From positions 1-61,285 of the forward strand of contig JAYZQJ010000254.1 of NCBI GenBank assembly GCA_036149055.1: a stretch of DNA of 61,285 nucleotides, written 5' to 3'. The notes under the pieces are model-generated. The model had not been told where the DNA came from and did no database searches. It was given only the letters and a program-made list of their open reading frames with translations. Origin of the DNA: Myxococcota bacterium. Its GTDB lineage: Bacteria > Myxococcota_A > Polyangia > Polyangiales > Sandaracinaceae. The stretch's first letter is position 1, and each line of letters starts with the position of its first letter. The position numbers and the translations under genes were made by a program. Shown one piece after another: positions 38,641 to 61,193 of this stretch.

Positions 38641-38691
38641 GGCTTCTCCAGTCTCTTGCGCCCGAGGGGCCTCGCGCCCATTCTCCCGCCG

Positions 38692-39585: not shown

Positions 39586-39592
39586 CCGGCGG

Positions 39593-42548: not shown

Positions 42549-42579
42549 AAGGTCCGGGGTCGGCCACTAACCTCCGTCG

Positions 42580-43695
42580 ATGGCGCTACCCATCAGCTTT
42601 TTCGAGAAGCTCCCGAAGACCGACCTCCACGTCCACCTCGACGGCTCGCTGCGGCTGGCCACCCTGATCGAGCTGGCGGAGGAGCAGGGCGTCGAGCTGC
42701 CGAGCACCGACCCGCTCGAGCTCCGCCGCAAGCTCCACCTGGGAGAGAACACCGGCTCGCTCGTCGAGTACCTCAAGGCGTTCGAGACCACGCTCAAGGT
42801 GCTGCAGACCGAGGACTCGCTCATCCGCGCGGCCCGCGAGCTCGCCGAGGACGCGGCGGCCGAGAACGTCCGCTACATGGAGGTCCGCTACGCCCCGATG
42901 CTGCACACGCGGCAGGGGCTCCGGCTCACGACCGTGGTCGAGGCGGTGCTCGAGGGCCTGTGGCAGGCGAAGGAGAGCCACGGCATCGAGTCCAACGTCA
43001 TCATCTGCGGCATCCGGAACATCTCGCCGGAGAGCTCGCTCGAGATGGCGCAGCTGGCCGTCGCCTACAAGGGCCGCGGCGTCGTCGCGTTCGACCTCGC
43101 GGGCGCCGAGTACGATCACCCGGCCAAGCACCACCTGCCCGCGTTCCAGCTCGTCCGGCAGAACAACATCAACGTCACGATCCACGCCGGCGAGGCCTAC
43201 GGCCCGGAGTCGATCCAGCAGGCGATCCACGACTGCGGCGCCCACCGCATCGGGCACGGCTGCCGCCTCCGCGAGGACGGCGACCTGCTCCACTACGTCA
43301 ACGACCACCGCATCGCGCTGGAGTGCTGCCCGAGCTCGAACGTGCAGACCGGCGCGGTCCGCGACCTGGCGAGCCACCCGATCAAGCTCTACCACGACCT
43401 CGGCCTGCGGGTGACGGTGAACACCGACAACCGCCTGATCACCGACACCACGGTCAGCAACGAGCTCTGGCTCACCCACACCCAGGTCGGCCTGAGCCTC
43501 GACGAGATCAAGCGCATCGTGCTCAACGGCTTCAAGGCCGCGTTCCTGCCCTTCCACGTGAAGCAGGCGTGGCTGCGCCGCGTGTCCAAGGAGCTGTCGC
43601 GCTTCCACGAGGACGGCGCCGTCGACGCGCCCGACACCGACAGCCACGAGCCGCTCCCGCGCGCGCCGGAGCCGGCCGACGAGGCGACCGTCTGA
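42580..43695 (+). CDS. add: Adenosine/adenine deaminase
   Basis: PKTDLHVHLDGS, HAGE, RIGHG, CPSSN, NTDN. Confidence 0.93.
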   Translation: MALPISFFEKLPKTDLHVHLDGSLRLATLIELAEEQGVELPSTDPLELRRKLHLGENTGSLVEYLKAFETTLKVLQTEDSLIRAARELAEDAAAENVRYMEVRYAPMLHTRQGLRLTTVVEAVLEGLWQAKESHGIESNVIICGIRNISPESSLEMAQLAVAYKGRGVVAFDLAGAEYDHPAKHHLPAFQLVRQNNINVTIHAGEAYGPESIQQAIHDCGAHRIGHGCRLREDGDLLHYVNDHRIALECCPSSNVQTGAVRDLASHPIKLYHDLGLRVTVNTDNRLITDTTVSNELWLTHTQVGLSLDEIKRIVLNGFKAAFLPFHVKQAWLRRVSKELSRFHEDGAVDAPDTDSHEPLPRAPEPADEATV

Positions 43696-44408
43696 CGCGG
43701 CTGTTCGACACCCACTGTCACCTCGACTTCGACGCCCTGCGCGAGGACCTCGACGGCGTCGCCCGCCGCGCGCGGGAGGCGGGCGTCGAGCGCGTCCTCG
43801 TCCCGGGCGTGCGCGGCGCCCCCGAGGCGCCCTCGCTCCCCGGCCTCCAGGTCAGCCGCGCCGCGGGCGTGCATCCGATGGCCGCCCACGAGCCCCTCGA
43901 CCTCGACGCCCTCGCGTCGTCGCTCGAGGGCGCGGTCGCGGTGGGCGAGCTCGGCTGGGACGCGCACGTCGAGGCGTCCACCGAGACGCAGGACCGGGTC
44001 GCCGACGCCCAGCTCGCGCTGGCCGCCGAGCGCGGCCTGCCGGTCATCCTCCACGTGGTCGGCCTCCACGGCCACGCGCTCGAGCGCCTCGCCCGCCACC
44101 GCCCAATGCGCGGCGTCGTCCACGCCTACAGCGGCTCGGCGGAGCTCGTGCAGCGCTACGTCTCGCTCGGCCTGCACGTCTCCATCGGCCCGAGCGTGCT
44201 CCGCGAGGGCGCGCGCAAGCCCCTCGAGGCCGCGCGCGCGGTCCCCGCCGACCGCCTCCTGCTCGAGACCGACGCCCCCGATCAGATCGCCGAGCCCGCC
44301 GACGTCCTCCGCGTGGCCGAGGCGGTCGCCGACGCCCGCGGCGAGCCCCTGGAGGTGGTCGCCGAGAGGGCGCTGGAGGCCGGTCTGTCCGTGTTCGGAC
44401 TACGCTGA
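43692..44408 (+). CDS. tatD: TatD family DNase
   Basis: FDTHCHLD, GVHP, VGELGWD, VILH, VVHAYSG, LLETDAPD; apparent CTG start overlapping the add stop. Confidence 0.88.
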   Translation: MTRLFDTHCHLDFDALREDLDGVARRAREAGVERVLVPGVRGAPEAPSLPGLQVSRAAGVHPMAAHEPLDLDALASSLEGAVAVGELGWDAHVEASTETQDRVADAQLALAAERGLPVILHVVGLHGHALERLARHRPMRGVVHAYSGSAELVQRYVSLGLHVSIGPSVLREGARKPLEAARAVPADRLLLETDAPDQIAEPADVLRVAEAVADARGEPLEVVAERALEAGLSVFGLR

Positions 44409-44525
44409 GGGTTGGAAGCGCCCCGCGATGGCGGTACCCTCTCCGTGGTCGCGGAGGTGGGTTCGCCTGCCGATGAGGGAGTCGGACGACGGCTCTCCAG
44501 CGGGGGATGAGGGGTCGCGACCGCC

Positions 44526-45572
44526 ATGACCGACTCCGCTGGAACGTTGTCCGCGCGATACGACGCGAAGATGTACGAGGTGAGGGCGCTGCGATTCGCG
44601 CGCCGGCGTCTCGGGCGGCCGCTCGAGGTCAACGTCCGACTCCCGGTGCACGGCGTGCCGTATGCGCAGCGGCCGGAGCTGGATGGCGCGTTCAGCGAGG
44701 GCGCTCGGCGCTACCTCGTGGAGGTGAAGGCGCACGCGCTCGATGGCGACGCGGTCGCCAGACAGGAGACGCGGGCTCGGGACCTGGGGTTCGACGCGCT
44801 CGTGCTGATCGCGCCCGGCTTTCGACAGCCCGCGCGAGCGTCGTCCACGACCGCGCTCTGGGCCTTCGAGCCCGACCTCGAGCCCCTCGAGCGGGCCTAC
44901 GCGCGGCCGCTCTCGATCCCGAGCGCGGTGGTGCGGTGGTGGCGCCCGGGAGGGGTCCACTTCCGGTTCACGCTCGCCCGCCGCGGCGGCGCCACGTCCG
45001 CGCGCCGGACGCTGAACCAGGTCGACAAGGGGATCCGGACACGCGAGGCGTTGCGCCGGGAGATCGCGAGGCTGGCCCCGCGCCACGTGCCCGCCTTCGT
45101 GATGTGGTCGCCGACGCGGCTGCTGTTCCCGAAGGACGCCTTCGATCGGCGGAGGCCCAAGCACGTGCGGGAGCGTCCCCTGGTCTTCGACGTGGACGGG
45201 CACGCCATCCATCGCGCCTTCTTCCCGTGCGTCCTCGGAGACGACGGCCTCTGCGCGGACTGCATCGGCTTCGCCCGGGTGCACGCGCGGCGGATCGTCG
45301 CCTGTCTCAGCGCCCACGGGCTCTCGCCCGAGGTGTTCTTCAGCGGGCGGAGCGGCTTCCACGTCTACGCCTTCGCCCGGATCGAGGACGAACGGCGCGC
45401 CGCGATCCTGCGCGACCTGACGCTCGCGCGCGTGATCCACGATGGCGTGATCGCCCACACCCGGGTCCCCATCATCAACCTGCCCGGCTCCCGTCACGGC
45501 GGCACGGGGCTCGAGCTGGCGCGCGTCGAATCGCTCGAGCGCTTCCGGCCCTCCCCGGCGGAGACCGCGTGA
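44526..45572 (+). CDS. PD-(D/E)xK nuclease-like domain fused to archaeo-eukaryotic primase (PriS-like)
   Basis: N-terminal ELDG...LVEVK; C-terminal LVFDVD, C-x7-CxxC zinc segment, FSGRSGFHVY, HDGV...IINLPGSRH. Confidence 0.75.
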   Translation: MTDSAGTLSARYDAKMYEVRALRFARRRLGRPLEVNVRLPVHGVPYAQRPELDGAFSEGARRYLVEVKAHALDGDAVARQETRARDLGFDALVLIAPGFRQPARASSTTALWAFEPDLEPLERAYARPLSIPSAVVRWWRPGGVHFRFTLARRGGATSARRTLNQVDKGIRTREALRREIARLAPRHVPAFVMWSPTRLLFPKDAFDRRRPKHVRERPLVFDVDGHAIHRAFFPCVLGDDGLCADCIGFARVHARRIVACLSAHGLSPEVFFSGRSGFHVYAFARIEDERRAAILRDLTLARVIHDGVIAHTRVPIINLPGSRHGGTGLELARVESLERFRPSPAETA

Positions 45573-46462
45573 GGGATCGGCTGCGACGCAGGATCCTGCG
45601 GGCCGCTTCGACGCCCCGCTCGCTCCGCCAGATCGCGACCGCCGAGCTGCTCCGGCTCGACCACGCCGAGGTCCTGGTGCGTGAGCTGCTCGCGGAGGGC
45701 AGCCTCGTCGAGCGCGCGGACGGCTTCGCGGCCGCGCAGCCTGGGCCTACCCGCCCCGATCGCGCGGCGCTCGAGGAGCGCGCGAGGCACGTCATCGGTC
45801 GCCGCCCCGCTCCGGACCCCGCGCTGGACCAGGTCCACCTCGAGGCGCCGTCCCTCGTGCGCCGGGCCGAGTGGCTGCTGCACACCGAGGACGCGCCCGA
45901 GCGCGACGTGCTCTTCCTCGGTGACGACGACTTCACCTCGCTCCTGGTGGCGGGCTGGGGGCCGGGCCGGGTGGTCGTGGCGGACATCGACCGGCGCGTG
46001 CTCGACGAGGTCGGCGCGCTCGCCGAGGAGCTCGGCGTCGAGGTGGAGCGCGTCCAGCTCGACCTGCGCGAGGCCCGCGGCGGCCTCCCTCCCGAGATCG
46101 CGCGGGTGATGGACCTCGTGGTGACCGATCCGCCGTACACCGAGGCGGGGGCGCTCTGGTTCACCGCGTGCGCGTCCGCCGCGCTGCGTCCGCGGCTCGA
46201 GAGCACCCTGGCCATCGCAGTCCCCTGGCTCGTCCGGGAGCACTGGTCCGACGAGCTGCTCGCGGCCGTGCAGGCTTGGTTGCTGCGGCGAGGCTTCGTG
46301 CTCACGGACGTGCTGAGGAGCTTCGGGCGGTACCACTCCGACGACGCGATCCAGTCCTCGCTCGTGGTGGCTCGTCAGGCCGCGCTCGACGCGACGTCCG
46401 ATCCCTTCGAGGGGCTGGACCCCGCGCGGCTCTACACCCGCGCGGCGAGGGGGACGCCGTGA
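45569..46462 (+). CDS. BpsA/DUF43-like aminopropyltransferase (branched-chain polyamine synthase family)
   Basis: RRPAPDPALDQ, FLGDDDFTS, ADIDRR, DLR, TDPPYT; N-terminal wHTH-like segment; GTGA overlap. Confidence 0.8.
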   Translation: MRDRLRRRILRAASTPRSLRQIATAELLRLDHAEVLVRELLAEGSLVERADGFAAAQPGPTRPDRAALEERARHVIGRRPAPDPALDQVHLEAPSLVRRAEWLLHTEDAPERDVLFLGDDDFTSLLVAGWGPGRVVVADIDRRVLDEVGALAEELGVEVERVQLDLREARGGLPPEIARVMDLVVTDPPYTEAGALWFTACASAALRPRLESTLAIAVPWLVREHWSDELLAAVQAWLLRRGFVLTDVLRSFGRYHSDDAIQSSLVVARQAALDATSDPFEGLDPARLYTRAARGTP

Positions 46463-47034
46463 GCGCCGTCGAAGCGCTGCTGGGCCTCGCGCTGGAGGAG
46501 CGCGCCCTCGCGCGGGGGACCCAGGAGGTGATGCGAGCCCTCGAACGCGGCCGTGCGACGATCGTGGTCCACGCGTCCGACGCTCCGTCCGATCTGGTCG
46601 ACCTGATCACGCGCGAGGCGCTGCAGCGGGAGGTCCCGCTCGTGCGGGGGCCCGACCGCGAACGGCTCGGCGCCCTCGCGGGGATCCAGCGGCCCGCGAC
46701 CGTCGTGTCCGTCGGCCGGTTGAAGCAGCGTCGCCGGCTCGCCGAGCTGCTCGGGGCGGCGGAGCCGGACGCGCTGCGGACCCTCGCGGGCCTCCAGCGG
46801 CACCTCCCGCTCGGTGAGGCGAGTCGCGACACCCGGCTCGCCAGAATGAAGAAACACCACGCCGCTCTGGTGGACGGTGAAGACGCCGCCGCGGCGCTTG
46901 GCGCGCTCCTCCAGGAGACGATCGCGCTCGCCAACGCTCACGGTGTCGACCTCCAGGCGGCGCTCGACCGAAGATGGCTCTCGGTGCGGTTCGTGCACGG
47001 CGACAACGGTGATGACCCCGAGGACGAGCGCTGA
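46459..47034 (+). CDS. L7Ae/L30e RNA-binding domain fused to degenerate MazG-like helical domain
   Basis: RGTQEVMRALERGRATIVVHASD...LGALAGI; C-terminal IALANAHGVDLQAAL; GTGA overlap. Confidence 0.7.
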   Translation: MSAVEALLGLALEERALARGTQEVMRALERGRATIVVHASDAPSDLVDLITREALQREVPLVRGPDRERLGALAGIQRPATVVSVGRLKQRRRLAELLGAAEPDALRTLAGLQRHLPLGEASRDTRLARMKKHHAALVDGEDAAAALGALLQETIALANAHGVDLQAALDRRWLSVRFVHGDNGDDPEDER

Positions 47035-48388
47035 GCTGGGGCGCGATCCTCACGCCGCCTCCTGGGCTCGCGTGGTCGCAGCGTACGGGCGGGCGGCCTC
47101 CTACTGGGCGCCCCAGATCCTCCTCCATCATCGGCTCCCGCGGGCCGTGGTGAAGCGCCTCGCCTGGGCGCGGCTGGTGCGGGCGATCCATCACGCGCGG
47201 CGCGCGGTCCCGTTCTATCGCGCGCGATATGACGGGCTCGCCACGCCTCGCGACCGAGCCGACCTCGCGGCGTATCCCCTCCTCTCCAAGGCCGATCTGC
47301 GGGAGGCGGGCGACTCCCTGCTGCGCGACGGGGCCCCGTCCCGCGACCGGCTGTCCGAGCGCAGCAGCAGCGGCTCCAGCGGGAGACCGGTCCGCGTCCT
47401 GTTCGACCCGCTGGCCGAGCTGCCCCGCCGTCTGCAGGAGCTGCGCCTCCTGAGCGCGCACGGCTTCCGTTTGACCGATCGGCAGGTGATCTTCGACGCG
47501 CCGTCGCACATGCCGCCTCGCCCGTTTCTGTTGCAGCGGCTCGGGCTCTGGAGACGCGACCCCTTTCCCTGGGAGAGGCCTCTGGCGGAGAGCCTGCGCT
47601 GGCTCGAGGGGGAGAGGGTCGAGGTGCTGCATGGTGTGTTGTCGAGCATCCGCATGCTGGCGCTCAGCGTGCGCAAGCGAGGCGGGCTCGCCTACCGGCC
47701 CAAGCTGGTCGTGACGAAGGGCGAGCTCCTCGACCCGGGGACGCGACGACTCGTGGAGGACACGTTCGGCTGTCCGCTGGTCGACTACTACGCGACCGAG
47801 GAGGTCGGGATCATCGCCTGGCAGGAGCCGGGCGCGCAGTCCTACCTCGTCGACGAGGATCTGGTCTTCGTCGAGATCGTCGACGAGCGCGGCCAGCCCG
47901 TACCGGACGGCCAGGTGGGCGAGATCGTGGTCTCGAACCTCTATCAGAGGACCATGCCCATCCTGCGCTACCGCACCGGGGATCTCGGGCGCCTCTCGCC
48001 GGAGCGCACGCCCTGGGGGCTCCCCCGGCTGGAGGAGCTGCGTGGGCGGCGCATCGACTGTCTCGTCACGCCGGACGGGCGCGTACGGCACCCGTTCACG
48101 CTGATGGCGGCGCTGGAGGACGTGCCCGAGATCGAGGCGTTCCGGTTGGAGCAGACCGCCGTCGACGAGCTCACGGCGTGGGTTCGCTGGGAGCCCGCCG
48201 GTCGAGAGCCTCCGGCGGCGCGCGTCGTGGAGCGCCTGAGCGCGGTGCTCGGGGACGGGATGCAGGTCCGCGTGCGCTCGATGCCGGAGGACGAACGGTT
48301 CGAGCCGGGGAAGAGCCACCTCGTGAAGGTCTTGCCCGAGCGATCGGTGGACGCGCTTCGGCTGGGAGACCTCGAGATCGAGCTCTGA
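47012..48388 (+). CDS. Adenylate-forming ligase, PaaK/CapK/F390-synthetase family
   Basis: VPFYR, SSSGSSG P-loop, YYATEEVG, MPILRYRTGDLG, LRGRR. Confidence 0.85.
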   Translation: MTPRTSAELGRDPHAASWARVVAAYGRAASYWAPQILLHHRLPRAVVKRLAWARLVRAIHHARRAVPFYRARYDGLATPRDRADLAAYPLLSKADLREAGDSLLRDGAPSRDRLSERSSSGSSGRPVRVLFDPLAELPRRLQELRLLSAHGFRLTDRQVIFDAPSHMPPRPFLLQRLGLWRRDPFPWERPLAESLRWLEGERVEVLHGVLSSIRMLALSVRKRGGLAYRPKLVVTKGELLDPGTRRLVEDTFGCPLVDYYATEEVGIIAWQEPGAQSYLVDEDLVFVEIVDERGQPVPDGQVGEIVVSNLYQRTMPILRYRTGDLGRLSPERTPWGLPRLEELRGRRIDCLVTPDGRVRHPFTLMAALEDVPEIEAFRLEQTAVDELTAWVRWEPAGREPPAARVVERLSAVLGDGMQVRVRSMPEDERFEPGKSHLVKVLPERSVDALRLGDLEIEL

Positions 48389-48408
48389 GCAGCGCGCGCG
48401 ACGCAGCC

Positions 48409-49467
48409 TCAGAGATCGGCCTCGTGGGCCTTGTGGTCTGCGCCGAGGCCGAGGCGCCTGGCGATCCGCTGTCGGACGCGCCAGTAGGCGCGGAACGCGG
48501 GGGACGCGCCGGGGAGCCAGACCTCGGTCATGCGCTCGCGCAGGAAGGCGTCGGCGCGAACGGGGCGGAGCCGAGGGCGCCCTCGGACGAGAGCGGCGGG
48601 CGGCGCGAGGAGCACGTCGGGGCGGGCGTTGGCGAAGAAGACCACGGCGTAGCGATCCGCGCGCTTCGCCTCGTCCGGCGTGGCCACCCGGTGCAGGCTC
48701 CCGGGGATCGCGAGGTCCGTGAGGCGCTCCATCATGTCGGCGACCGTGACCACCATGGCCTCGTCGAAGCCGCGCAGCGCCTGCCACTGTCCGTCGCGGG
48801 TGCAGACCTCGAGGCCCGGCGCGGTCGCGGGAGGGAGCACGCCGAAGAGCCCCGCGCCGGTGTGCTCGACGGCCCGCGCCTGCCCCGCGTCGATCGGGCC
48901 GGACAGCGCCGGGTAGCGAATCAGCCGGAGCGTGTGCGCGCCGCCGCGCGCGAGGTCCGCGAACGTGCCAGCCGGCAGCTCCAGCGTCTCCGCGAGGATC
49001 TGGGCGATCGTGTCGGCGCAGCGCTCGAAGCGCCGAAAGGCGGCCTCGAGGACCGCGCGGTGGGGATCGAACCCGGGCGGCCACGGGTTGTCGGGCTCGT
49101 AGAACGACCGCAGCGCGCGGGGGGTGTCGGCGGGGGCGGAGCGCCCGAGATGCCAGAGCTCCTTCAGGTCCGGACGTCGCCCGCGCAGCGCGCGCTCGAT
49201 GCCGTAGGGCATGTGACCGCGAGGGCCCGCGGCGCACGCGCGCTTCTGCTCGGCGGGGAGGGCGAAGAGGGCGCGACTCGCCTCGTCGATGCGGGCGCGC
49301 GTCGCCGCGTTCAGGCCGTCGTCGTCGACGGCGAGGAAGTTGAACCGCTCCAGGCTTCGCTTCGCCGTCGCCACCACGGCCCTGCGCGCGCGGCTGTTGC
49401 CGGAGCGGTACGCGTCGAGGTCGAGGCGGGGCACGTCGCCCTGCGACACGATCCTGAGGCTCCCCAT
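48409..49467 (-). CDS. IPNS-family Fe(II)/2-oxoglutarate oxygenase with H-x-G motif (candidate halogenase)
   Basis: DIOX_N (LFALPAEQK, DLKE, PDNPWP), LRLIRYP, EHTGAG, GLEV, HRV, RYAVVFF. Confidence 0.85.
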   Translation of the reverse strand: MGSLRIVSQGDVPRLDLDAYRSGNSRARRAVVATAKRSLERFNFLAVDDDGLNAATRARIDEASRALFALPAEQKRACAAGPRGHMPYGIERALRGRRPDLKELWHLGRSAPADTPRALRSFYEPDNPWPPGFDPHRAVLEAAFRRFERCADTIAQILAETLELPAGTFADLARGGAHTLRLIRYPALSGPIDAGQARAVEHTGAGLFGVLPPATAPGLEVCTRDGQWQALRGFDEAMVVTVADMMERLTDLAIPGSLHRVATPDEAKRADRYAVVFFANARPDVLLAPPAALVRGRPRLRPVRADAFLRERMTEVWLPGASPAFRAYWRVRQRIARRLGLGADHKAHEADL

Positions 49468-49516
49468 GCCGAAGCATGTCTCGCCTTCGCGGCGCGATCA
49501 CCTGTAGAGTCGAGTC

Positions 49517-50233
49517 GTGGAGCGCGCTGGCTCGGTCCTGGCCTTCGACGCCGACGACACCCTCTGGCACGACCTGCCGCGCTACCTCGGACTCGAGGCG
49601 CGCTTCGCCGAGCTCCTCGCCGAGCACGGTGAGCCCGACGCGCTGCGCGCCCGGCTGGACGAGATCGAGATCCGGAACCTCGAGCGGTACGGGTACGGCC
49701 CGAAGGGGTTCCTGCTCTCGATGATCGAGACCGCCATCGAGGTCAGCGACGGTGCGATCGACGGGCACGCGATCCGTCGGATCCTCGAGTGGGCCGAGGT
49801 GCTGACCGAGCAGCCGGTCGAGCTCCTGCCGGGGGTCGCGGAGACGCTCTCGGCGCTGTCGGAGCGCCATCGACTGTGGCTCGTCACCAAAGGCGACCTC
49901 TTCGACCAGGAGGCGAAGATCGCCTCGAGCGGGCTCGCGGATCTCTTCGAGCACATCGAGATCGTCAGCCAGAAGGACGTCGACGTGTACCGAACGATCC
50001 TCACCCGGCGCGGCGTGGCGGTCGAGGACTGGGTGATGATCGGCAACTCGATCCGCTCGGACGTGCTCCCCGCTCTGGCGCTGGGCGCCCGCGCCGTGCA
50101 CGTGCCGCATGACGAGAGCTGGCATCACGAGGAGGCGTCCATCGACGCGGCGTCGTCGGAGCGCCTGCTCCGCGTCGGTGACGTGAAAGATCTGTTGTCC
50201 GCGGAGGTTGGCCGTTGGTTGAGCGAGAAGTGA
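49517..50233 (+). CDS. HAD-superfamily hydrolase (nucleotidase-like)
   Basis: FDADDTLW, VTKGD, MIGNSIRSDV. Confidence 0.9.
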   Translation: MERAGSVLAFDADDTLWHDLPRYLGLEARFAELLAEHGEPDALRARLDEIEIRNLERYGYGPKGFLLSMIETAIEVSDGAIDGHAIRRILEWAEVLTEQPVELLPGVAETLSALSERHRLWLVTKGDLFDQEAKIASSGLADLFEHIEIVSQKDVDVYRTILTRRGVAVEDWVMIGNSIRSDVLPALALGARAVHVPHDESWHHEEASIDAASSERLLRVGDVKDLLSAEVGRWLSEK

Positions 50234-50970
50234 GCGTCGTCCTGTCGGGGTCCTTTCGGAAGCACCTCGCCGAGATTCACCGGTGCATCCGTGCGTTCGA
50301 CGAGCTGGGGGTGCGCGTCGTCGCGCCTCGGCTCGCCACCGCGAAGAACCCCGGCGAGGAGTTCGTGATCCTCGACGGAGACGAGACGGACGATCCGCGC
50401 ACGCTCGAGCAGGCGCACCTGGACGCGATCTCCGAGGCGGACGCGCTCTTCCTGGTCAGCGTGGACGGCTACGTCGGCGCGTCCGCGTCGCTCGAGGTCG
50501 GCTGGGCGCTCTCGCGAGGAAAGAGGGTGTTCGCGCTCGAGGCGCCGAAGGACGTCACGCTGCGCGCCTTCGTGGAGGCGGTGGGCGAGCCGGCCGAGAT
50601 CGCCCTGGCCCTCCGCGCCGCCACCGAGCCTGCCCTCGACGCGTTGGGCCCCGGCGCCTCGCTCGCGCAGGTGCAGGCGACGTCACACGCGCTCGTGGTG
50701 AAGCGCGGCTTCGACGACGAGACCCCGATGGAGATCGTGCTCCTCATGGTCGAGGAGGTCGGCGAGCTGGCCAAGGCGGTGCGCAAGGAGGTGGGGCTGA
50801 AGGTGGACGCCGCCAAGCTCGACGAGATCCCTCGGATCCGCACCGAGCTCGCCGACGTGTTCATCTACCTCCTCCACCTCGCCGACCGATGTCACGTGGA
50901 TCTGTTCGAGGCCTGGATCGAGAAGGAGCGGCTCAACGAGACGCGGTTCTTCGAGCGCGCCGGCTCATGA
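50230..50970 (+). CDS. Nucleoside 2-deoxyribosyltransferase-like domain fused to MazG (RS21-C6/dCTPase-like) pyrophosphatase
   Basis: LSGSFR...ISEADAL...GYVGASASLEVGWA; EEVGELAKAVRK...ELADVFIYL; GTGA overlap. Confidence 0.8.
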   Translation: MSVVLSGSFRKHLAEIHRCIRAFDELGVRVVAPRLATAKNPGEEFVILDGDETDDPRTLEQAHLDAISEADALFLVSVDGYVGASASLEVGWALSRGKRVFALEAPKDVTLRAFVEAVGEPAEIALALRAATEPALDALGPGASLAQVQATSHALVVKRGFDDETPMEIVLLMVEEVGELAKAVRKEVGLKVDAAKLDEIPRIRTELADVFIYLLHLADRCHVDLFEAWIEKERLNETRFFERAGS

Positions 50971-51741
50971 GTCGGCGCACCACCGGCGCAGCGTCCGGAG
51001 GTTGTGCGAGGCCCGGGCGAGCACGTCGGAGGCGAGCGGGAGCGCCGGGTCGAAGCGGGTGACGGGAGGCTCGAGGTCCTGCGCGTCGTCGTACACGACG
51101 CCCTCGATCGCGTGGTTGACGGCGATGGTGCTGTCGACGCTGCGGACCTGGGGGCCCAGCCGGCGTGCGAGGAAGACCTCGCGCGGATGCGTGAGCCCGA
51201 GCAGGTGCAGCGGCTTGTCCGTGCGACGCGTCAGGCGCTCCAGGACGACCAGCCGCGCCAGCGCGGGGTCCCGGACGCCGAGCTCGGCGCAGAACGCGCG
51301 CGGCACGATCCCCTTGGCGATCCCGATCACCGCGACCGACGGGTGACTCGCGAGCCCATCGAAGCAAGTGAGGAAGTCTCCCGGGGTCGCCCCCTCCGAG
51401 ACCGCGTGCCACCGGACGCCCTCGGCTCCGGGCCGGGCGAGCCACTCCCTCGCCAGCGCCAGCGTCGCCTCACCATCACCGTCGACCTCCGGGAGCTGGA
51501 CCTCCGTCGCGCCCACCCGGGCCGCCAGCTCGAGCGTCTCGACGAAGCCGAGGAGCTCGCGCCCGGCGAGGTGCGCTTCGTAGGCGCCGTTGTTGAGCAC
51601 GACGTGGGTGCCGCTCTCCGAGAGCTCGCGAAAGGCCCCGGCGTACTCGTCGTCGCGCGCGAGGTGGGCGAGCGCCATCGCCATCGCTCCGCGCGAGAGC
51701 TCGCGGGTGTGCGGGATGGGCGCGGTCGCGCAGAGCCTCAT
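50965..51741 (-). CDS. Phage-type TGT/DpdA-like TIM-barrel protein
   Basis: ALAHL, VLNNGAYE, LPEV, AVSEG, IGI, HLLG, RSVDST in the TGT-family motif order. Confidence 0.6.
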   Translation of the reverse strand: MRLCATAPIPHTRELSRGAMAMALAHLARDDEYAGAFRELSESGTHVVLNNGAYEAHLAGRELLGFVETLELAARVGATEVQLPEVDGDGEATLALAREWLARPGAEGVRWHAVSEGATPGDFLTCFDGLASHPSVAVIGIAKGIVPRAFCAELGVRDPALARLVVLERLTRRTDKPLHLLGLTHPREVFLARRLGPQVRSVDSTIAVNHAIEGVVYDDAQDLEPPVTRFDPALPLASDVLARASHNLRTLRRWCADS

Positions 51742-52484
51742 CTTCCGGCCCCCGACGCGCTCAGCCCCGCGCGCGCGACCTCGGCGACCCGAGCGCGGAG
51801 CGCCTCCCGCGTGGTCGCCCCGGCGCGCGCGATGCGCTCGTGGTCGAGCTCGACCTCGTCCGCGGCGTCGGTCACCAAGCAGATGGCCGCGTAGCGGAGC
51901 CCCAGCTCGTTGGCGAGCGCCGCCTCGCGCGCGATCGTCATCCCCACGACGTCACCGAGGGTTGCGTGGAATCGAAGCTCCGCGCGCGTCGGGTAGCGCG
52001 GGCCTTCCACGCTCACGTAGACCCCGCCCTCGTGCACCGTCGACGCGTCGAGCCCGACGAGGAGCTCACGGGCGAGCGGCGCATCGAACGGCGCGTGCAT
52101 CGAGGTGTGCACGACGCGGTCCGAGTGGAACGTGAGGCTGGGGCCGAGCTCCACGAAGTCGTCGAGGATCACCAGGTCCCCGACCGCGAGGCCCTCGCGG
52201 AGCGCGCCCGCGGACGCGAGCGCCACCACCGCGTCGACGCCCTCCTCGCGCATCGCGTGGAGCAGGGCGCGGGGGTCCAGCCGATGCGGAGGCATGCCGT
52301 GCCCCCTCCCGTGCCGCGCGGCCACGAGCGCCCCGGGGGCGGCCGCGAGCTGGTCCCCTCCCACGTCGCCCCAGGGCGTCCGCCGCGGGAGCGGGTCGCC
52401 CTCGTCGCAGTCGAAGCCCGTCCCGAGAATCAGCCCGATCACTCCTCCATGCGACCACATCGGCTCGAGGTCGCCAAGGCTCAT
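51738..52484 (-). CDS. 5'-methylthioadenosine/purine nucleoside phosphorylase (MTAP family)
   Basis: IGLILGTG, TPWG, RHG..H..PPH, EGPRYPTRAE, VVGMT, ELGLRYAAICLVTD. Confidence 0.88.
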   Translation of the reverse strand: MSLGDLEPMWSHGGVIGLILGTGFDCDEGDPLPRRTPWGDVGGDQLAAAPGALVAARHGRGHGMPPHRLDPRALLHAMREEGVDAVVALASAGALREGLAVGDLVILDDFVELGPSLTFHSDRVVHTSMHAPFDAPLARELLVGLDASTVHEGGVYVSVEGPRYPTRAELRFHATLGDVVGMTIAREAALANELGLRYAAICLVTDAADEVELDHERIARAGATTREALRARVAEVARAGLSASGAGR

Positions 52485-55162
52485 CGCGGCTCGGCGAACG
52501 TCCAGTCGGCGGCCTCACCGCATCGGTGCAGCCTCGGGCGCAAGAAGAGCGCGTCGCCCTCGGGCGGACCCTCGGCCCACTGGATCGGCCACGCCGACAT
52601 CACGAGCGCGACCTCCTGGCCGACCCACCGCTCGAGCGACAGATCGCGCAGGTCGCGCGGCCCCTCCCCGGGCTCGAGGATCTCGCGCCGGAGGCGCCAC
52701 ATCACGCCGCCGCGCTCCACTCCGACCAGGGCGCCCATGGCGCGACCGGCGTGGCGCGTGTCCAGGCTGATGGCGAGGCAGCTCGCGTCGGCGGGCACCC
52801 TGAAGCTCAGCTTCACCTGGGCTGGCGTCTGCTCGGGCGGAAGCGAGGTGAGCGCGAGCTCGTCGCCGCTCACCCGGGCGGCGCCTCGGACGACCTCGTG
52901 ATCGCCATCCTGGAAGGCGTGGATCAGGCTCACGGGCGCGCTGCACGGCTCGATCCGCGGTCGGTGGAGGAACGGGCGCAGGGGCCCCTCCTCGACCTCG
53001 AAGTGGAGCCCGAGCATCACGAAGCGGAGCGCCCACGGATCCAGCGGGATCTCGATCGGCTGGCGCCACTCGCCTCCTCGCAGGGGACGGTCGACGATGT
53101 CGGTCCGCTGCGCCGCGTCCCAGACCTCCGCGCGCACCCGGCCCCGCCCCTCACCCTCGGCGCCGATCTCCGCGACCAGGCAGGCGCCGCGGCACGGCCG
53201 GAGCGTGAAGTACGCGCCGCGGTTCGGAGCGGCCGGGCCCCCGGGGGGGTGTGGGGTGAGCCAGAGCCGGGCGCCGTCCCGCTCGCCGCCGACGTGATGC
53301 AGCAGCGCGTCCGACAGGGTGATCGGCGTGCTGGGCGTGCACTCGAAGGGCGGCGGGGGGCTCACCGCGCCGCCCGGTCGGAGCTCCGTGATCCGCCGGA
53401 CGCGCACGCGGGCTCGCGTCGGACCCCCCTCGGACGGGGCGAGCTGAAGGACGAACCGCTCGGCGTCGTGGTACCGCCCGGCCGGCATCCCGGTGATCCA
53501 CCGTTGCTCCGCGCGCACCGGGTGGACCGGCACCAGGAGCGTCATGGCGCCTCCCCAGCGGGGCACGGCGACCTCGAAGCGCGGCGTCACGACGCGCGCG
53601 TGGCTTCGCATCTCCACGAACACCCGCGGCGCGAGCGGCCTCAGCGCGTCCCAGCCCACCGGCTCCAGGTCGAGCTCGACGGCCAGGACGCTGTCGCCGA
53701 GGACGGGGCGGTCGAGCTGCACTCGGACCTCACCGGGCACGTCGACGAGCTCGTCCGGCGCGGTCCGGATCGGGACTCGATGCGCCGTGGGCGGCGCGTC
53801 GGCGATCCGGCGACGCGTGATCCAGAGATCGGGGCCGAGCCGGGCGACGGGCTCGTACCGCTCGGCGCGCAGCAGGAGGTCGGGGCCGAAGTGCAGCGCT
53901 CCCCAGCCCTCCGTCGAGGACGCGCGCCAGCGCTGCAGCGCCCACGGGCAGTCGGCCTCCTCGAGCCGTCGAGCGAGTCGCGCTCCACCGTCTCGGTCGC
54001 GGAAGGGATCGAGCGGCCCGGGGCGCTTCAACGCCGCGCGCAGCGAGGGCTCGCCGGAGGGCGCGACGACGCACGTGTCCTCGGGGATGTGCCGGCTCGC
54101 CCACGCCGCCGCTCTCGCCTCGTCGGTGTACGGCGGCAAGCCGGCCCCCGCCTCGAGCGGGGCGCGGGCGGTCAGCCGCGGGAGCGCGACCGGCCACCCG
54201 AACATCAGGAGCAGCAGCGCGCTGGCGAGCAACGCCGACACTCCGCGGTGACGGGAGAACGTGCGCGCGGCCGTCACGGCGAGGGCGGCGGCGGCCACCG
54301 ACACGGCGGCCAGCTGATGAGTCGCCCGAGCGTCGAGCAGCGCGGTCGCGCCCACCGCGACCGCGACCGCGAGCCACGTGCGCTCGGACGGATGCAGGAG
54401 CCCTCGGCGGTGCAGGGCGAGGCCGGCCGCCGCCACCAGCCCGATCCACGTGGCGATGCCCGCGACCCGGCCGCTCTCCAGCGGGGGGAGGGCGATCCAG
54501 TCGTGGTCCCAGCGGAGCGCCAGCCCGAGGAGCCACCAGCCGCCCACCACCGCCGTGGCCGCTCCCGCCGTCAGGGCGGCGGCGGCGTCGCGTCGCCCGG
54601 GGCGCGTGAAGAAGATCGCCGCGCACCCTCCAGCGACACCGAGCCATGCGCTCGGCGTCCACGAGACGGCCAGGCCCGCGAGGAGGCTCCCGAGGACCGC
54701 GCGCCGTCGATCCGGGCGCTCGGACGACAGGGCGCCGAGCGATCCCGCGGTGAGCAGCCAGCCGGGGGCGATGGCCTCCTCCGTGAGCGCGAGGGCGGCG
54801 AGCGCGGGGAAGATGGCGGAGCGCTCCTCTCGGGTCCTGGCGAGCGGGAGCGATCGCGCCAGGGCGGCGGCGAGCGCGATGCAGCCCCACGAGAAGAGCA
54901 ACGACTGTTGCGAGGCGTCGGCGCCGCTCCAGACGGCGACGGCCGCCCACGTCTGACGCAGCGCGCCCTCGCCCGACGCCGGCGCGACGAGGTCGCCGCG
55001 CAGCGTCGCTTCGCCGAGCTCGAGCAGCCGACGCCTCCCGGCGTCTCGCAGCGGCTCCGCGAACACGGGGCCGGTGAGGTGAGCGAGCCAGCGCCCGACG
55101 AGCGTGAGCGCGACGAGCACCCAGCCGACCAGCTCCCACGCCAGCGCGCCGCGACGGCTCAC
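52481..55162 (-). CDS. Large multi-TM protein with C-terminal beta-sandwich domains (GT-C-like architecture), paralogue 2
   Basis: About ten hydrophobic segments, then a soluble region with LxxWxGxxVxL repeats; GTGA overlap at 55159-55162. Confidence 0.6.
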   Translation of the reverse strand: MSRRGALAWELVGWVLVALTLVGRWLAHLTGPVFAEPLRDAGRRRLLELGEATLRGDLVAPASGEGALRQTWAAVAVWSGADASQQSLLFSWGCIALAAALARSLPLARTREERSAIFPALAALALTEEAIAPGWLLTAGSLGALSSERPDRRRAVLGSLLAGLAVSWTPSAWLGVAGGCAAIFFTRPGRRDAAAALTAGAATAVVGGWWLLGLALRWDHDWIALPPLESGRVAGIATWIGLVAAAGLALHRRGLLHPSERTWLAVAVAVGATALLDARATHQLAAVSVAAAALAVTAARTFSRHRGVSALLASALLLLMFGWPVALPRLTARAPLEAGAGLPPYTDEARAAAWASRHIPEDTCVVAPSGEPSLRAALKRPGPLDPFRDRDGGARLARRLEEADCPWALQRWRASSTEGWGALHFGPDLLLRAERYEPVARLGPDLWITRRRIADAPPTAHRVPIRTAPDELVDVPGEVRVQLDRPVLGDSVLAVELDLEPVGWDALRPLAPRVFVEMRSHARVVTPRFEVAVPRWGGAMTLLVPVHPVRAEQRWITGMPAGRYHDAERFVLQLAPSEGGPTRARVRVRRITELRPGGAVSPPPPFECTPSTPITLSDALLHHVGGERDGARLWLTPHPPGGPAAPNRGAYFTLRPCRGACLVAEIGAEGEGRGRVRAEVWDAAQRTDIVDRPLRGGEWRQPIEIPLDPWALRFVMLGLHFEVEEGPLRPFLHRPRIEPCSAPVSLIHAFQDGDHEVVRGAARVSGDELALTSLPPEQTPAQVKLSFRVPADASCLAISLDTRHAGRAMGALVGVERGGVMWRLRREILEPGEGPRDLRDLSLERWVGQEVALVMSAWPIQWAEGPPEGDALFLRPRLHRCGEAADWTFAEPR

Positions 55163-57981
55163 GGCGCCGCCCCGCACTCGTGAAGCGCGAGCGTGAGCAC
55201 CTCGGCGGGCTCTCCGCTCGTCGCGGCGGCGGGCAGGTCGACGACGAGCTCCACCCGTCGCCCGGTCCAGTCGTGGAGTCCCAGCTCGGAGCGCCACGTG
55301 TCCCCGCCGGCGATCTCGCCTTCGTGGAGCACCTGCTCCTGCCCTCCCTCCGCGACGCGGACCATGACCACGCGCGGGCTCGAGCGCGGGGCCCGGGCTC
55401 CGAGGGTCGCGCAGGTGTTCGGCGCGACGTGAAACGCGCGCCGCAGCGTCCCACCTCGCCAGCCGACCTCGATCGTCTCGGACGAGGCGCGCGCCGCGCC
55501 GCTCAGGGTGACTCGACCGGACGCGATCCCCTCCGGAAGCGAGCGCCGCGCGGTGCACCGCTCCAGCCTCGGCTCGATGAGCAGCACCTCGCGAGCGGGG
55601 TCGACGCCGGCGCTCCCCAGCACACCCACCCGCAAGAGGATGGGTCGCCCGCGCCACCGCTCGAGAGAGAGCTCCAGCGCGGAGCGCGAGCCGTCGCGGG
55701 GGACGGTGGTCAGGCCGAGTCGAGCCCGGGCCGCGCCCTCGATGGCGTGTACCTCGACGTCCATCGTCGGCGCGGCCGCGTCGCCGGGGGGCGCCCCCTC
55801 CTCGAACTCGGCCATGAAGCAAGTGCCGCTGCATGGGCGCAGCGGAAAGAGCAGCTCGCCCAGCGGCTGTCCGGGGGGCCTGGGCCGGAGGTGCAGCTGG
55901 CTGTCGTCCGCGTCCGGGCTCAGCTGTCGAGGCCAGGCGGCCGAGGAGCGCAGCTGGTCCACCAGCCTCCGATAGGCGTGGCACGGCTCATCGTCATCGC
56001 GCGGCGCCGCGGGTGGCGAGAGTCGCTCGAGCGACCGAACCTCGAGCGACACCGCGTCGGGCGCGAAGACCCCGGGCCCGGTCACCCGGAGCCGCAGCGA
56101 AGACGCGCGACGCGGCTCTCCCGCCCTGGGGATCCCAGCGATCCACCGCAGCTCGGCGGTGTCGGGATCCGGGCTCAGGAAGACGACGCTCGGGCGCCCG
56201 ACCTCCATGTGGTGCATCTGCTTCCAGCCGGTGACCGGAGCGCCGCCGGTCTCGAAGCGGTAGTCGATGCGCGGCTGCCCTCCGGCGAACGTCCGCCAGC
56301 GCGGGAAGTCGAGCACGTACGCGAGCCTCACCAGCTCTTCGCCGCTCACCGGAGGAGAGAGAGGCAGGACGAGGTCTGCCGGCAGCGTCAGCTCGGTCGC
56401 CTGCGGCTCGGGGACGTCGATGGGCGCGCGCCGCGCCTGCTCGCGGCTCCCTCGTCGCTCGAGCTCGAAGAGCGCGAAGCCGAGCCGGCGTCGCGCCCGA
56501 TGCTGCTCCGCGAGGGCGACGAAGTCCTCGCCGAAGAACCAGCTCTCGCCGGGCTCGTCGATCGTGCCGGCGTAGTAGAGGAACCGCTCGCAGTCCCAGC
56601 GCTCCACGTCGCGGGCGAGCTCGGCTTGCATGTCGGGGGTCCACCGCATCGCGAGCTCGGTCGGCCCTCGGAGGCCGGAGAGCGCGTGCGCGACGGTCAG
56701 GTGCGGAGACATCCCCACGCAGCGAGCGCCCCGTCGTCGCTCTCCCCACGCCCACCGCGCCGCCACCCGGTGGTCGGTGGAGAAGCCGCGGTCGGCCCGC
56801 TTCAGGCCGGTCGCCACGCGGAAGGCGTCGGCGAACACCGTGGGGCTCTGGCTGAACGCGGCCGGGTAGGTGCCGAACCACCCCAGCATCGCGGCGGCCG
56901 CGACCACCCCCGCGCCGAGCCGCGTCCAGGAGCGGCCCTGCCCGGCGCCGGCCGCGACGAGGACCAGCACGCCCAGGGCGGGGAGGATGGCCATGAACAC
57001 GTGCCCGGCGTCGCTCCGGATGAGCCCGAACGCCGCCGCGGGGAGCGCGCCCCCCAACCAGACCGCGGCGCTCCGGTCCGCGGATCCAGCGCGCGTGATC
57101 GAGGGCGCGATCAGCGCGCCTCCGGCGACCACGAGGGCGATCACGTTCGACGGCGGGACGTCGACCTCCCAGCTGCTCACCATGTTGGCGGCGTAGGCGC
57201 TCGCCAACCGCCGCTGCCCCTCGAGGTAGTCGAGCGGGTGGAACCCGAGCCACGCGCCCACGGCGATCACCAGGGCGGCGCCCACCGCCAGACAGACGAC
57301 GAAGCGCGCAGGGCGACGGACCGCCTCGAGCGGCTCGTCGCGGTGGCGCGCTCGGACGATGACCTCGACCACGAACACCCCGGCGAAGGAGAGCGCCGCG
57401 ACGCTCGCCCGGTCGAACGAGAGCAAGAGCGCCCCCAGGGTGGCGGCCGCGGCGACGCCAGCGAACACCCATCGCCGTCGAGGGGCGTCGCGCACCGCGC
57501 TCTCGGGCGGGGCGTACGCGAGGACGATCCCGAGGGACAGCACCGCGCGAAAAGTGGCGGGCCCCGAGCCGTTCGTGAGCGTCGCCAGCGCCGCGAGCGC
57601 GCCCACTCGCGCCCACCCCGACGGCACGAAGCGGAGGGTCGCCGTCGCGGCGATCGCGAGGCTGGCCGCGTGGAACAGCAGGTAGATCCAGGCGAGGGTC
57701 CCCGCGGCCCAGCCCGACGACAGGAGGGACGCGAGGTACGCCACCCCCTGCCAGAGCGGACCGCGCGGATAGTCGAAGTCGCGCCCCGACCACTCGCCGT
57801 GCGACGCTCGAAGCGCGAGCTCGAGGCGCCACGCCTGGTCGTAGAGATCCTCCTGCAGCGCCTCGAAGTCCCAGAGGGCGGCCTGGGTGTAGGCGGTCGC
57901 GACGGTCTGGGCGACCAGGTACGCGCCTACGAGCCAGAGGGCCCGACGCGCCAGGGTGCTCTCGGACGACGGGACGCCCAC
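55159..57981 (-). CDS. Large multi-TM protein with C-terminal beta-sandwich domains (GT-C-like architecture), paralogue 1
   Basis: First loop EDLYD...GRDFDYPRGPLW, many TM helices, C-terminus similar to the neighbour; GTG start approximate. Confidence 0.65.
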   Translation of the reverse strand: MGVPSSESTLARRALWLVGAYLVAQTVATAYTQAALWDFEALQEDLYDQAWRLELALRASHGEWSGRDFDYPRGPLWQGVAYLASLLSSGWAAGTLAWIYLLFHAASLAIAATATLRFVPSGWARVGALAALATLTNGSGPATFRAVLSLGIVLAYAPPESAVRDAPRRRWVFAGVAAAATLGALLLSFDRASVAALSFAGVFVVEVIVRARHRDEPLEAVRRPARFVVCLAVGAALVIAVGAWLGFHPLDYLEGQRRLASAYAANMVSSWEVDVPPSNVIALVVAGGALIAPSITRAGSADRSAAVWLGGALPAAAFGLIRSDAGHVFMAILPALGVLVLVAAGAGQGRSWTRLGAGVVAAAAMLGWFGTYPAAFSQSPTVFADAFRVATGLKRADRGFSTDHRVAARWAWGERRRGARCVGMSPHLTVAHALSGLRGPTELAMRWTPDMQAELARDVERWDCERFLYYAGTIDEPGESWFFGEDFVALAEQHRARRRLGFALFELERRGSREQARRAPIDVPEPQATELTLPADLVLPLSPPVSGEELVRLAYVLDFPRWRTFAGGQPRIDYRFETGGAPVTGWKQMHHMEVGRPSVVFLSPDPDTAELRWIAGIPRAGEPRRASSLRLRVTGPGVFAPDAVSLEVRSLERLSPPAAPRDDDEPCHAYRRLVDQLRSSAAWPRQLSPDADDSQLHLRPRPPGQPLGELLFPLRPCSGTCFMAEFEEGAPPGDAAAPTMDVEVHAIEGAARARLGLTTVPRDGSRSALELSLERWRGRPILLRVGVLGSAGVDPAREVLLIEPRLERCTARRSLPEGIASGRVTLSGAARASSETIEVGWRGGTLRRAFHVAPNTCATLGARAPRSSPRVVMVRVAEGGQEQVLHEGEIAGGDTWRSELGLHDWTGRRVELVVDLPAAATSGEPAEVLTLALHECGAAP

Positions 57982-58016
57982 GTAGTCATTCGTACCACGT
58001 GGCGTCTCTGGATGAG

Positions 58017-58619: not shown

Positions 58620-58689
58620 CGGCGCACCTTAGCAGCGCAGCATTCTCGCCGCGGCGACATCGCTGCGCCCGGAGGCGCTGGAGGGAGGG

Positions 58690-58800
58690 TCAGGCGAAGG
58701 TGGCCGCCCAGTAGGCGACGGTCAAAGCTCCCGGAATCACGAAGAAAGCGAGCTCGGTCACGGTGAGGTCTCGGCGCTCGGCGCCACGATTCGAGGTCAT
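58690..58800 (-). CDS. Unannotated 36-aa single-TM small protein
   Basis: MTSNRGAERRDLTVTELAFFVIPGALTVAYWAATFA*, directly behind a sigma54 motif. Confidence 0.5.
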   Translation of the reverse strand: MTSNRGAERRDLTVTELAFFVIPGALTVAYWAATFA

Positions 58801-58812
58801 GCCTTCCCGCTT

Positions 58813-58828
58813 AGCAGCGCGCGTGCCA
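58813..58828 (-). promoter_or_regulatory. Sigma54 -24/-12 promoter
   Basis: Minus strand TGGCAC-GCGCG-CTGCT. Confidence 0.6.
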
Positions 58829-58841
58829 CCCTCGCGCCGCC

Positions 58842-61181: not shown

Positions 61182-61193
61182 GCTGGGCTTGTT

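Follow-up and report, generated by a model that had tools for sequence, protein, structure and literature searches.

A stretch of 61,285 nucleotides from a Myxococcota bacterium (contig JAYZQJ010000254.1; the window) carries an inserted island of eleven genes, g1 to g9, big1 and big2 (Table 1), whose best-supported core is most likely a nucleotide-tailoring route, with substrates, step order and a nucleic-acid target that we infer. We tentatively read the island as a pathway that turns a nucleotide into a modified base and ends in base exchange on nucleic acid, a reading that we consider possible rather than probable. Such a pathway would begin with the MazG half of g7, which would remove pyrophosphate from a (deoxy)nucleoside triphosphate to leave the monophosphate. 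The HxG iron(II)/2-oxoglutarate (Fe(II)/2OG) enzyme g5 would oxidize or halogenate this monophosphate or its base, and release of the free modified base, or of the sugar, would fall either to the NDT-like half of g7 or to g6 and g9, acting in turn as phosphatase and phosphorylase. The DpdA-type transglycosylase g8 might then swap the modified base into DNA, or possibly RNA, and the operon g1–g4 may act on the same nucleic acid, to which it could add an aminopropyl or acyl group.

Base exchange would fall to g8, which gave no match in Pfam or among PDB sequences. When folded with AlphaFold2 (AF2) from a 46-row alignment drawn from 764 representative relatives, g8 formed an eight-stranded barrel of the (beta/alpha)8 type seen in TGT enzymes (predicted local distance difference test (pLDDT) 95.5), and all 50 matches listed by a Foldseek search of the PDB were TGT or ArcTGT (E values of 1.6e-7 to 3e-6; template modelling (TM) scores by query of 0.53–0.67). 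We found the g8 family in 70 viral loci (IMG/VR). Among 76 open reading frames (ORFs) neighbouring the family in 36 of these loci, GTP cyclohydrolase I was present 12 times, FolE2 once, and QueC, radical-SAM and MazG genes twice each; a family A DNA polymerase adjoined the g8-family gene in 13 of the 36, fused to a uracil-DNA glycosylase (UDG) in 12. MazG-like tblastn matches were found in 5 of the 70 loci. In Bacillus phage BSP7, the genes for QueC, QueD, QueE and FolE lead up to a g8-family gene, annotated as hypothetical, and the polymerase gene comes after it. The Foldseek matches, the viral neighbourhoods and BSP7 together bear out the TGT-like gene of the original prediction and place it more precisely: g8 is a member of the phage DpdA family, whose enzymes exchange bases in DNA, and base exchange by g8 itself is predicted by analogy. 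We also noted that in 12 phage contigs the gene 3' of the DpdA-like gene encodes a family A DNA polymerase with an N-terminal domain of the UDG superfamily.

TGT catalysis relies on two aspartates, one acting as nucleophile and the other as general acid/base, and from motif likeness we take the Asp residues of the RSxDS and LDNGAxE motifs to be their probable equivalents. The RSxDS Asp is invariant in all 46 aligned members of the family, g8 included. In the sections of two reports available to us, phage DpdA inserts 7-deazaguanines into DNA (PMC6884629, PMC10516641), and the inserted bases shield phage DNA from restriction (PMC6884629). Similar to the phage enzyme described there, g8 has the TGT barrel and keeps the RSxDS Asp, and its family adjoins FolE, QueC, QueD, QueE and DNA polymerase genes in phages; members of the family may already stand in the DpdA lists of the supplementary data of both reports. 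Unlike phage DpdA, g8 is chromosomal and lies in a Myxococcota-like genome, the only one of 401 sampled genomes of the phylum with the family, the 400 others lacking it. Its partners, which are MTAP-like, GT-C-like, NDT-MazG and HxG-2OG proteins, are not described for any DpdA in those parts of the literature that were consulted. The bacterial Dpd cluster (DpdA, DpdB, DpdC and DpdD–K; PMC10164549, sections available) likewise places a TGT-like enzyme with potential for base exchange on a genomic island, but we recognized no DpdB-like or DpdC-like gene in our island and no helicase or nuclease restriction gene, and g8 is of the small phage type that the Pfam TGT model does not match. A further relative of g8, also annotated as hypothetical, is encoded on Streptomyces chartreusis plasmid NZ_CP108842.1 (529227–549907), where QueD, QueE, FolE, the g8-family gene and a NUDIX gene are consecutive; genes for a HAD hydrolase and an MFS transporter are close by, the locus is flanked by an integrase and transposases, and its 20 kb contain no annotated QueC.

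The oxygenase g5 matches the Pfam models DIOX_N and 2OG-FeII_Oxy. Its HTG aligns to the HGD of the relative 3oox, and both the distal His (H259) and the 2OG-binding Arg (R272) are invariant across three HTG-type enzymes, so that g5 carries the motif of Fe(II)/2OG halogenases, HxG/A in place of HxD/E with the distal His and Arg kept. This motif is necessary, not sufficient, for halogenation, and g5 is a candidate whose halogenase activity is only predicted. The HxG oxygenase of the original prediction thus holds, and its motif is shared: HTG was present in all three members of the clade, namely g5 and its counterparts in a Haliangium metagenome-assembled genome (MAG; L014) and in the relative G002, each of which adjoins an NDT gene. 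Homologues of g5 at 30–39% identity occur in 139 of 401 Myxococcota genomes; at the best 29 Myxococcota homologue loci, all the enzymes have H-E-D, and the 1.5-kb flanks contain no island gene. Because HTG was found in 3/3 enzymes beside NDT and HED in 29/29 homologues, the change of Asp to Gly appears to mark a small NDT-linked clade, in which it is conserved. A described enzyme with the same motif is AdaV/AdeV, an HxG Fe/2OG enzyme that halogenates deoxyadenosine monophosphate (dAMP) in adechlorin biosynthesis and shares with g5 the Fe/2OG fold with Gly for the carboxylate ligand and a gene context of nucleotide metabolism (PMC11186838, PMC12766721, in the sections available); AdaV acts on C2' of the nucleotide sugar (PMC11186838, same sections). 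However, g5 is only a remote relative of AdaV (phmmer 3.8e-6); its likeness to the uncharacterised 3oox (1e-36) and to thymine dioxygenase (2.8e-15) is greater.

Protein g7, of 250 residues, joins two domains. Its C-terminal half matches MazG above the Pfam cut-off (3e-5) and is closest to DCTPP1, a house-cleaning MazG pyrophosphatase of the RS21-C6 type, and its N-terminal half, with invariant GSFR and E-x-G motifs, gives an NDT match (0.0024) under the cut-off, which relates it to the N-glycosidases of the DNPH1/NDT family. Unlike DCTPP1 and DNPH1/NDT, in g7 both domains are fused. A word-seeded search returned 561 matches to the g7 family at E<=0.001, and the fusion is conserved at approximately 45–53% identity across the source genome, Haliangium and many Patescibacteria (Nealsonbacteria, Wolfebacteria, Saccharibacteria and others); in the literature we found no characterised member of this fusion family. 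The phosphatase g6 is a HAD protein in Pfam, with weak likeness to YjjG-type nucleotidases. For g9, PNP_UDP_1 scored 6e-31, whereas the NCBIfam MTAP model (TIGR01694) gave 155 bits and did not reach its cut-off of 274.85; the housekeeping MTAP lies on another contig of the genome (C125; 318.7 bits). The MTAP proposed earlier is therefore right as to the MTAP/PNP family, but g9 is a divergent extra paralogue and not the housekeeping enzyme.

The operon g1–g4 would encode, in order, a nuclease-primase, a BpsA-like N-alkyltransferase, an L7Ae protein of the RNA-binding kind and a ligase. The NCBIfam PriS model matched g1 at 3e-6, under the cut-off, and g1 contains the primase motifs FDVD, SGRSGFHVY and PGSRHG, invariant in a six-sequence family alignment; by sequence these correspond to the core of archaeo-eukaryotic primases (AEP/PriS), with DxD, sGxGxH and a later Asp/His motif. 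The AF2 model of g1, which has a modest pLDDT of 66.7, matched PriS best in Foldseek (1.2e-5), and its N-terminal part matched NucS/AF1548-like nucleases. A homologue of g1 from a metagenome (L120) passes Pfam DNA_primase_S (34.5 bits, cut-off 26.8). Protein g2 matches Pfam BpsA_C at 1.6e-25 (90.2 bits, cut-off 27) and BpsA itself (PDB 5xnc) at 6.9e-15. Its catalytic domain aligns with BpsA (5xnc, 6j27) and retains the GDDD, DID and TDPP motifs, the last within TDPPYT; unlike BpsA, g2 has a shortened N-terminal domain, is only 25–41% identical to any relative and falls in a separate clade. In our tree, g2 and its primase-linked and GT-C-linked relatives grouped together with support of 100/99, and the other BpsA_C homologues sampled lay outside this clade. 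A complex prediction for g1 and g2 scored 0.02 and counts neither way. In g3, L7Ae scored 7.8e-15 over residues 3–85 in Pfam, and a protein atlas aligned residues 1–109 only; residues 96–191 had no Pfam match except a stray RsmI_C at 0.022. The suggestion that this C-terminal half is a second MazG domain was rejected, as hhalign against the g7 family gave a probability of 1.5% over 18 residues. Pfam, NCBIfam and PDB sequence searches all support g4 as a PaaK-like ligase. Eight of the nine domain calls made earlier thus hold, the MazG half of the L7Ae gene being the one that fails, and the domain searches confirm that the genes encode enzymes of nucleotides and nucleic acids.

The proteins big1 and big2 are paralogues of approximately 900 codons each, and both are polytopic membrane proteins. 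Neither had a Pfam match at 1e-3. The protein atlas places them near GT-C glycosyltransferases of the PMT_2/GT39/GT87/YfhO type, which we treat as a lead only (feature score 0.97 to clusters in which 65% of members have PMT_2; structural TM by query 0.38–0.60). Both genes are co-transcribed and translationally coupled with g9 and g8.

To define the island, we called genes by analysing GC content at third codon positions (GC3) frame by frame and with a simple likelihood-based gene caller, since at the 73% GC of the window raw lists of ORFs contain mostly noise. Nine coding frames with GC3 of 0.89–0.93 lie in 44526–52484, exactly where they had been predicted. Direct reading of the sequence showed GTGA overlaps at g1/g2 and g2/g3 and ATGA overlaps at g9/g8 and big1/g9; g6 and g7 also overlap, as do g3 and g4, by 23 nucleotides (nt) if g4 starts at 47012. 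These overlapping ends amount to translational coupling within operons, and g8 is coupled to g9 and big1. Genes g1–g9 use both strands and make up four or more transcription units rather than one. Thus, the contiguous nine-gene block first described is real, but the unit to which it belongs has eleven genes and extends as an insertion of approximately 13.6 kb to about position 57956.

We located this insertion by comparing 41300–61285 of the window with five relatives of the source genome (G000, 96% complete; relatives are labelled G001 to G335 and similarly) and confirmed gene order by tblastn. In G001, of the same genus, contig C16 4111–7179 corresponds to window 41303–44353, the amidase–ADA–TatD stretch, at 84% identity, and Tag (window 58026–58615), then GDPD–TcdA–GNAT, follow directly after TatD, an adjacency also seen in G008; by tblastn, the order CarbT–amidase–ADA–TatD–Tag–GDPD–TcdA–GNAT is contiguous in G001. 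Because TatD and Tag adjoin in G001 and G008, the segment from about 44354 to 57956 is an insertion. It replaced the last approximately 55 bases of TatD, and the junction alignment shows a 30-nt remnant at the right border (about 57957–57986) that is similar to the former 3' end of TatD. We found neither an integrase or transposase gene nor a convincing flanking repeat at the island, where the repeat search returned only imperfect matches of the kind expected in DNA of 73% GC. The island is accessory and most likely horizontally acquired. ADA (adenosine deaminase), TatD, the carbamoyltransferase and the amidase were considered as members of the cluster and rejected, being conserved, syntenic flank genes in relatives. 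Just to the left of the insertion (38656–44408), the genes for a 309-residue protein without assignment, NodU/TobZ-like carbamoyltransferase, amidase, adenosine deaminase and TatD-like hydrolase stand in a run that looks like a separate nucleoside-related operon; relatives share it, with synteny, from the carbamoyltransferase gene on. At the other end, approximately 85 nt of intergenic sequence 3' of GNAT (61188–61274) match many contigs of G001 and G004 at 74–86% identity and look like a dispersed repeat.

Table 1. Genes and extent of the island in the window.
Feature	Assignment	Position	Strand	Basis or remark
Island	Inserted island, ~13.6 kb, eleven genes	44354..57956 (approximate borders)		Between TatD and Tag; absent in relatives
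g1	Restriction-endonuclease-like N-terminal domain and archaeo-eukaryotic primase (PriS-like)	44526..45572	+	NCBIfam, motifs, Foldseek
g2	BpsA_C-like N-alkyl(aminopropyl)transferase-like protein, dependent on S-adenosylmethionine (SAM) or decarboxylated SAM	45569..46462	+	Pfam, PDB sequence match, tree
g3	L7Ae-fold domain (residues 1-109); C-terminal half without family	46459..47034	+	Pfam, atlas alignment
g4	PaaK-like adenylate-forming ligase	47012 (or 47072)..48388	+	Pfam, NCBIfam, PDB search
g5	Fe(II)/2OG oxygenase, H-T-G replacing H-x-D, halogenase-type motif	48409..49467	-	Pfam, alignment to 3oox
g6	HAD phosphatase, weakly YjjG-type-nucleotidase-like	49517..50233	+	Pfam, NCBIfam
g7	NDT-like N-glycosidase/transferase and DCTPP1-like MazG pyrophosphatase	50215 (or 50230)..50970	+	Pfam, PDB search
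g8	Small TGT-fold barrel, phage DpdA-type family, Asn at near-invariant Asp	50965..51741	-	AF2, Foldseek, alignment
g9	Divergent MTAP/PNP-family nucleoside phosphorylase paralogue	51738..52484	-	Pfam, NCBIfam
big1	Polytopic membrane protein with large C-terminal domain, big2 paralogue, GT-C-like	52481..55177	-	Stop overlaps g9 start
big2	GT-C-like (PMT_2/GT39/GT87-like) membrane protein	55159..57981	-	Protein-atlas look-up

The island is a mosaic of sub-modules that recur elsewhere, and its whole gene set was found nowhere else in the collections searched; the co-occurrence expected of the nine genes was thus observed for parts of the set and not for the whole. One sub-module links the HxG oxygenase to NDT. 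In the Haliangium MAG, a methyltransferase, NDT-MazG, HTG-2OG and HAD genes form one operon with overlapping ends, and in G002 the HTG-2OG gene overlaps an NDT-only gene. A search of 80 loci anchored on g7 found another island gene in only two, L014 (2OG) and L091 (a HAD gene by a MazG-only gene). A second sub-module joins the BpsA-like gene to the ligase and GT-C-like genes. In G002 and in G310 and G335, which belong to another family, BpsA_C adjoins a ligase (47–49% identity to g4) and one or two big2-like genes, and G004 has a BpsA_C gene and ligase fragments. Other neighbours of these modules are methyltransferases and radical-SAM/SPASM proteins and, in some, sulfotransferases and APS kinase. 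In G002, the BpsA–ligase–GT-C module abuts the HTG-2OG/NDT module; because the two are adjacent there too, at only 40–49% identity, their linkage appears to have been kept. Just upstream of the HTG-2OG/NDT pair of G002 (C85 7145–9318) lie genes for a TauD-family dioxygenase and an N-formylglutamate-amidohydrolase-like protein, and a Rieske oxygenase gene lies between NDT and the ligase; given these neighbours, the G002 cluster may hold further tailoring steps. In G310 (C3 428379–435277), a second big2-like pair lies approximately 13 kb downstream of the first BpsA–ligase–GT-C cluster, with the gene for a more distant PaaK-like ligase (30% identity) behind it.

A third recurring pair involves the primase. 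On a 2.8-kb metagenome contig of 31.7% GC, a g1-like gene overlaps by 4 nt a BpsA_C gene (1.6e-42), behind which lies a P-loop kinase-like gene. Clusters of g1-like (45% identity) and g7-like (52%) proteins have two contig sizes in common, 21673 and 23011, from two independent sources, and g1-like and g7-like genes probably stand together in another organism. Otherwise g1 is rare: it was present in one of 401 genomes of the order, the source genome, and only two homologue clusters were found among 5.8 billion proteins. A metagenome scan recovered only a 99% identical copy from the same organism (L119), L120 and a fragment (L121), and no relative was found in viral contigs or plasmids. Full-length g7 was not found in 40 relatives, 12 of which match the MazG part only. 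Near-identical DNA occurs in sequencing runs: at least half of the sampled words are present in 16 runs, and all runs with such DNA come from 12 studies, mostly labelled seawater, marine, estuary or cold seep. RNA-library contigs from two studies cover pieces of g1, g2/g3, g6, g7/g8, g9, big1 and big2, a weak hint of expression in which DNA carry-over is possible and uncovered parts are uninformative. One of these contigs (run X17) has three extra bases (TGT) right after the g1/g2 overlap, at window 45569, which is probably strain variation at the junction.

Several observations weigh against a pathway to base exchange. The LDNGAxE Asp, present in 44 of the 46 family members, is Asn in g8 and its nearest relative, P0160 (41% identity), a change that could cripple base exchange. 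Unlike the setting of phage DpdA, genes for 7-deazaguanine synthesis (FolE, QueD, QueE, QueC) were not found in the island, and no true QueC was found in G000 (96% complete), where the QueC model gave two partial PP-loop matches only; the canonical TGT that G000 carries at C137, together with these partial matches, suggests salvage of queuosine precursors rather than synthesis. The island contains no helicase, ATPase or other restriction-type partner, and base exchange leaves two GT-C-like membrane proteins without a role. The sub-modules speak in the same direction: the HAD in the window and that in L014 share 24% identity (E 0.23) and are not orthologues, 13 of 14 full-length g7 loci from other phyla lack other island genes nearby, and hidden Markov models of the g1 and g8 families match nothing in the related myxobacterial loci or L014. 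The relatives of g2 and g4 in G002, G004, G310 and G335 sit with GT-C-like proteins and not with nucleic-acid enzymes, so the link that the original prediction drew from BpsA-like protein and ligase to nucleic-acid chemistry gives way, in these four other genomes, to one with GT-C proteins. In addition, the Streptomyces plasmid context of the g8 relative also fits a nucleoside small molecule. For these steps in their most specific form, in which a base other than a 7-deazaguanine (for example, a halogenated or oxidized purine) would be swapped into the bacterium's own DNA by the Asp-to-Asn g8, and an aminopropyl-acyl group then added by the primase-linked BpsA-like enzyme and the ligase, the likelihood is low.

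It is possible, although rather unlikely, that the island instead makes a small molecule of nucleoside type that is halogenated or hydroxylated and may also carry aminopropyl and acyl groups. Here g5 would tailor a nucleotide, g6 would dephosphorylate it, g7, g8 and g9 would swap or release the base, g2 and g4 would decorate the product, and the membrane proteins would export the product or protect the producer. A PaaK-like ligase is a typical member of small-molecule pathways, the L014 operon contains no nucleic-acid enzyme, and the plasmid locus of the g8 relative, with its QueD, QueE, FolE, NUDIX, HAD and MFS genes, presumably resembles the clusters of deazapurine nucleoside antibiotics. 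Halide is plentiful in the marine settings with which most runs holding near-identical DNA are labelled, and the HxG enzyme AdaV/AdeV provides a precedent in the chlorination of dAMP for adechlorin (PMC12766721, sections available). However, a nucleoside product leaves the primase-nuclease, L7Ae and the membership of g8 in a phage DNA-modification family without account; no regulator, dedicated transporter or resistance gene was recognized in the island, and GT-C-like proteins are not known exporters.

We also consider it unlikely that the island is a chance mosaic, in which an envelope module (g2, g4, big1 and big2), nucleotide house-cleaning genes (g5–g7 and g9) and phage or mobile remnants (g1, g3 and g8) would share no product. 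That the full set was found nowhere else, that each sub-module occurs alone elsewhere, that the g8 family occurs mainly in viruses and g1 is similar to replication proteins from mobile elements, and that the genes occupy at least four transcription units on both strands would all be expected of such a mosaic. Yet all eleven genes lie in one insertion with host-like codon usage (GC3 0.89–0.93) at which neither integrase, transposase nor clear flanking repeat was found, the 2OG-NDT and BpsA–ligase–GT-C modules are adjacent in G002 as well, and g8 is translationally coupled to g9 and big1.

That same coupling suits an envelope-glycan pathway, the only explanation that employs big1 and big2, although we regard it as quite unlikely. 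The NDT half of g7, g9 and perhaps g8 would free a pentose phosphate from nucleotides or from methylthioadenosine made by g2; g5 would tailor this pentose phosphate, and the GT-C-like pair would move it by a lipid carrier to a surface glycan. A parallel may be seen in mycobacterial lipoarabinomannan, whose methylthio-pentose probably derives from methylthioadenosine and is probably added by a GT-C enzyme. The recurrence of BpsA-like, ligase and GT-C-like genes together in G002, G310, G335 and partly G004, and the joining of this module to HTG-2OG and NDT genes in G002, are consistent with this explanation, as is the action of AdaV at the sugar of a nucleotide (C2'; PMC11186838, sections available). 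By contrast, the GT-C assignment is one atlas look-up with no Pfam match, we saw no gene in the island for a polyprenyl-phosphate sugar synthase, the related G310 and G335 clusters have no nucleoside-cleaving enzyme, and the primase-nuclease, L7Ae and the DpdA-type membership of g8 again find no account.

Anti-phage defence, with nucleotide depletion or sanitation by g6, g7 and g9, removal or exchange of modified guanine in invading DNA by g8 and a nuclease-primase effector, appears improbable: the island is accessory and sporadic, has a nuclease fusion, MazG and NDT domains and a DpdA-family enzyme, and DpdA bases protect phage DNA from restriction (PMC6884629, sections available), but PADLOC-DB 2.0 gave no match for g1 or g3–g9 and only a weak mad2 row for g2 (8e-4), bearing out the earlier claim that no named defence system matches g1–g9, the PADLOC matches to ADA, TatD and TcdA all lie in the conserved flanks, the island contains no typical sensor, ATPase or abortive effector, no defence genes lie in its neighbourhood, and its conserved partners are biosynthetic enzymes.

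All component families of the island are already known. In the literature searched we found no description of the eleven-gene combination or of the three recurring pairs, HxG-2OG with NDT(-MazG), the primase with the BpsA-like enzyme, and the BpsA-like enzyme and ligase with paired GT-C-like proteins; none has a described function there, and each is tractable biochemically. On its sequence, the HxG-2OG clade is a candidate for a new nucleotide or nucleobase halogenase, which would be of biocatalytic interest. DpdA-type enzymes have so far been tied to 7-deazaguanines, and one that stands apart from any deazaguanine genes, beside a halogenase-type nucleotide oxygenase and three further enzymes for cutting or exchanging bases, would broaden the chemistry of base exchange on DNA. 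There is a small chance that the island represents truly new DNA chemistry; if so, it would be a new kind of DNA hypermodification, with a new class of substrate for the TGT/DpdA family and possibly the first enzymatically halogenated DNA base.

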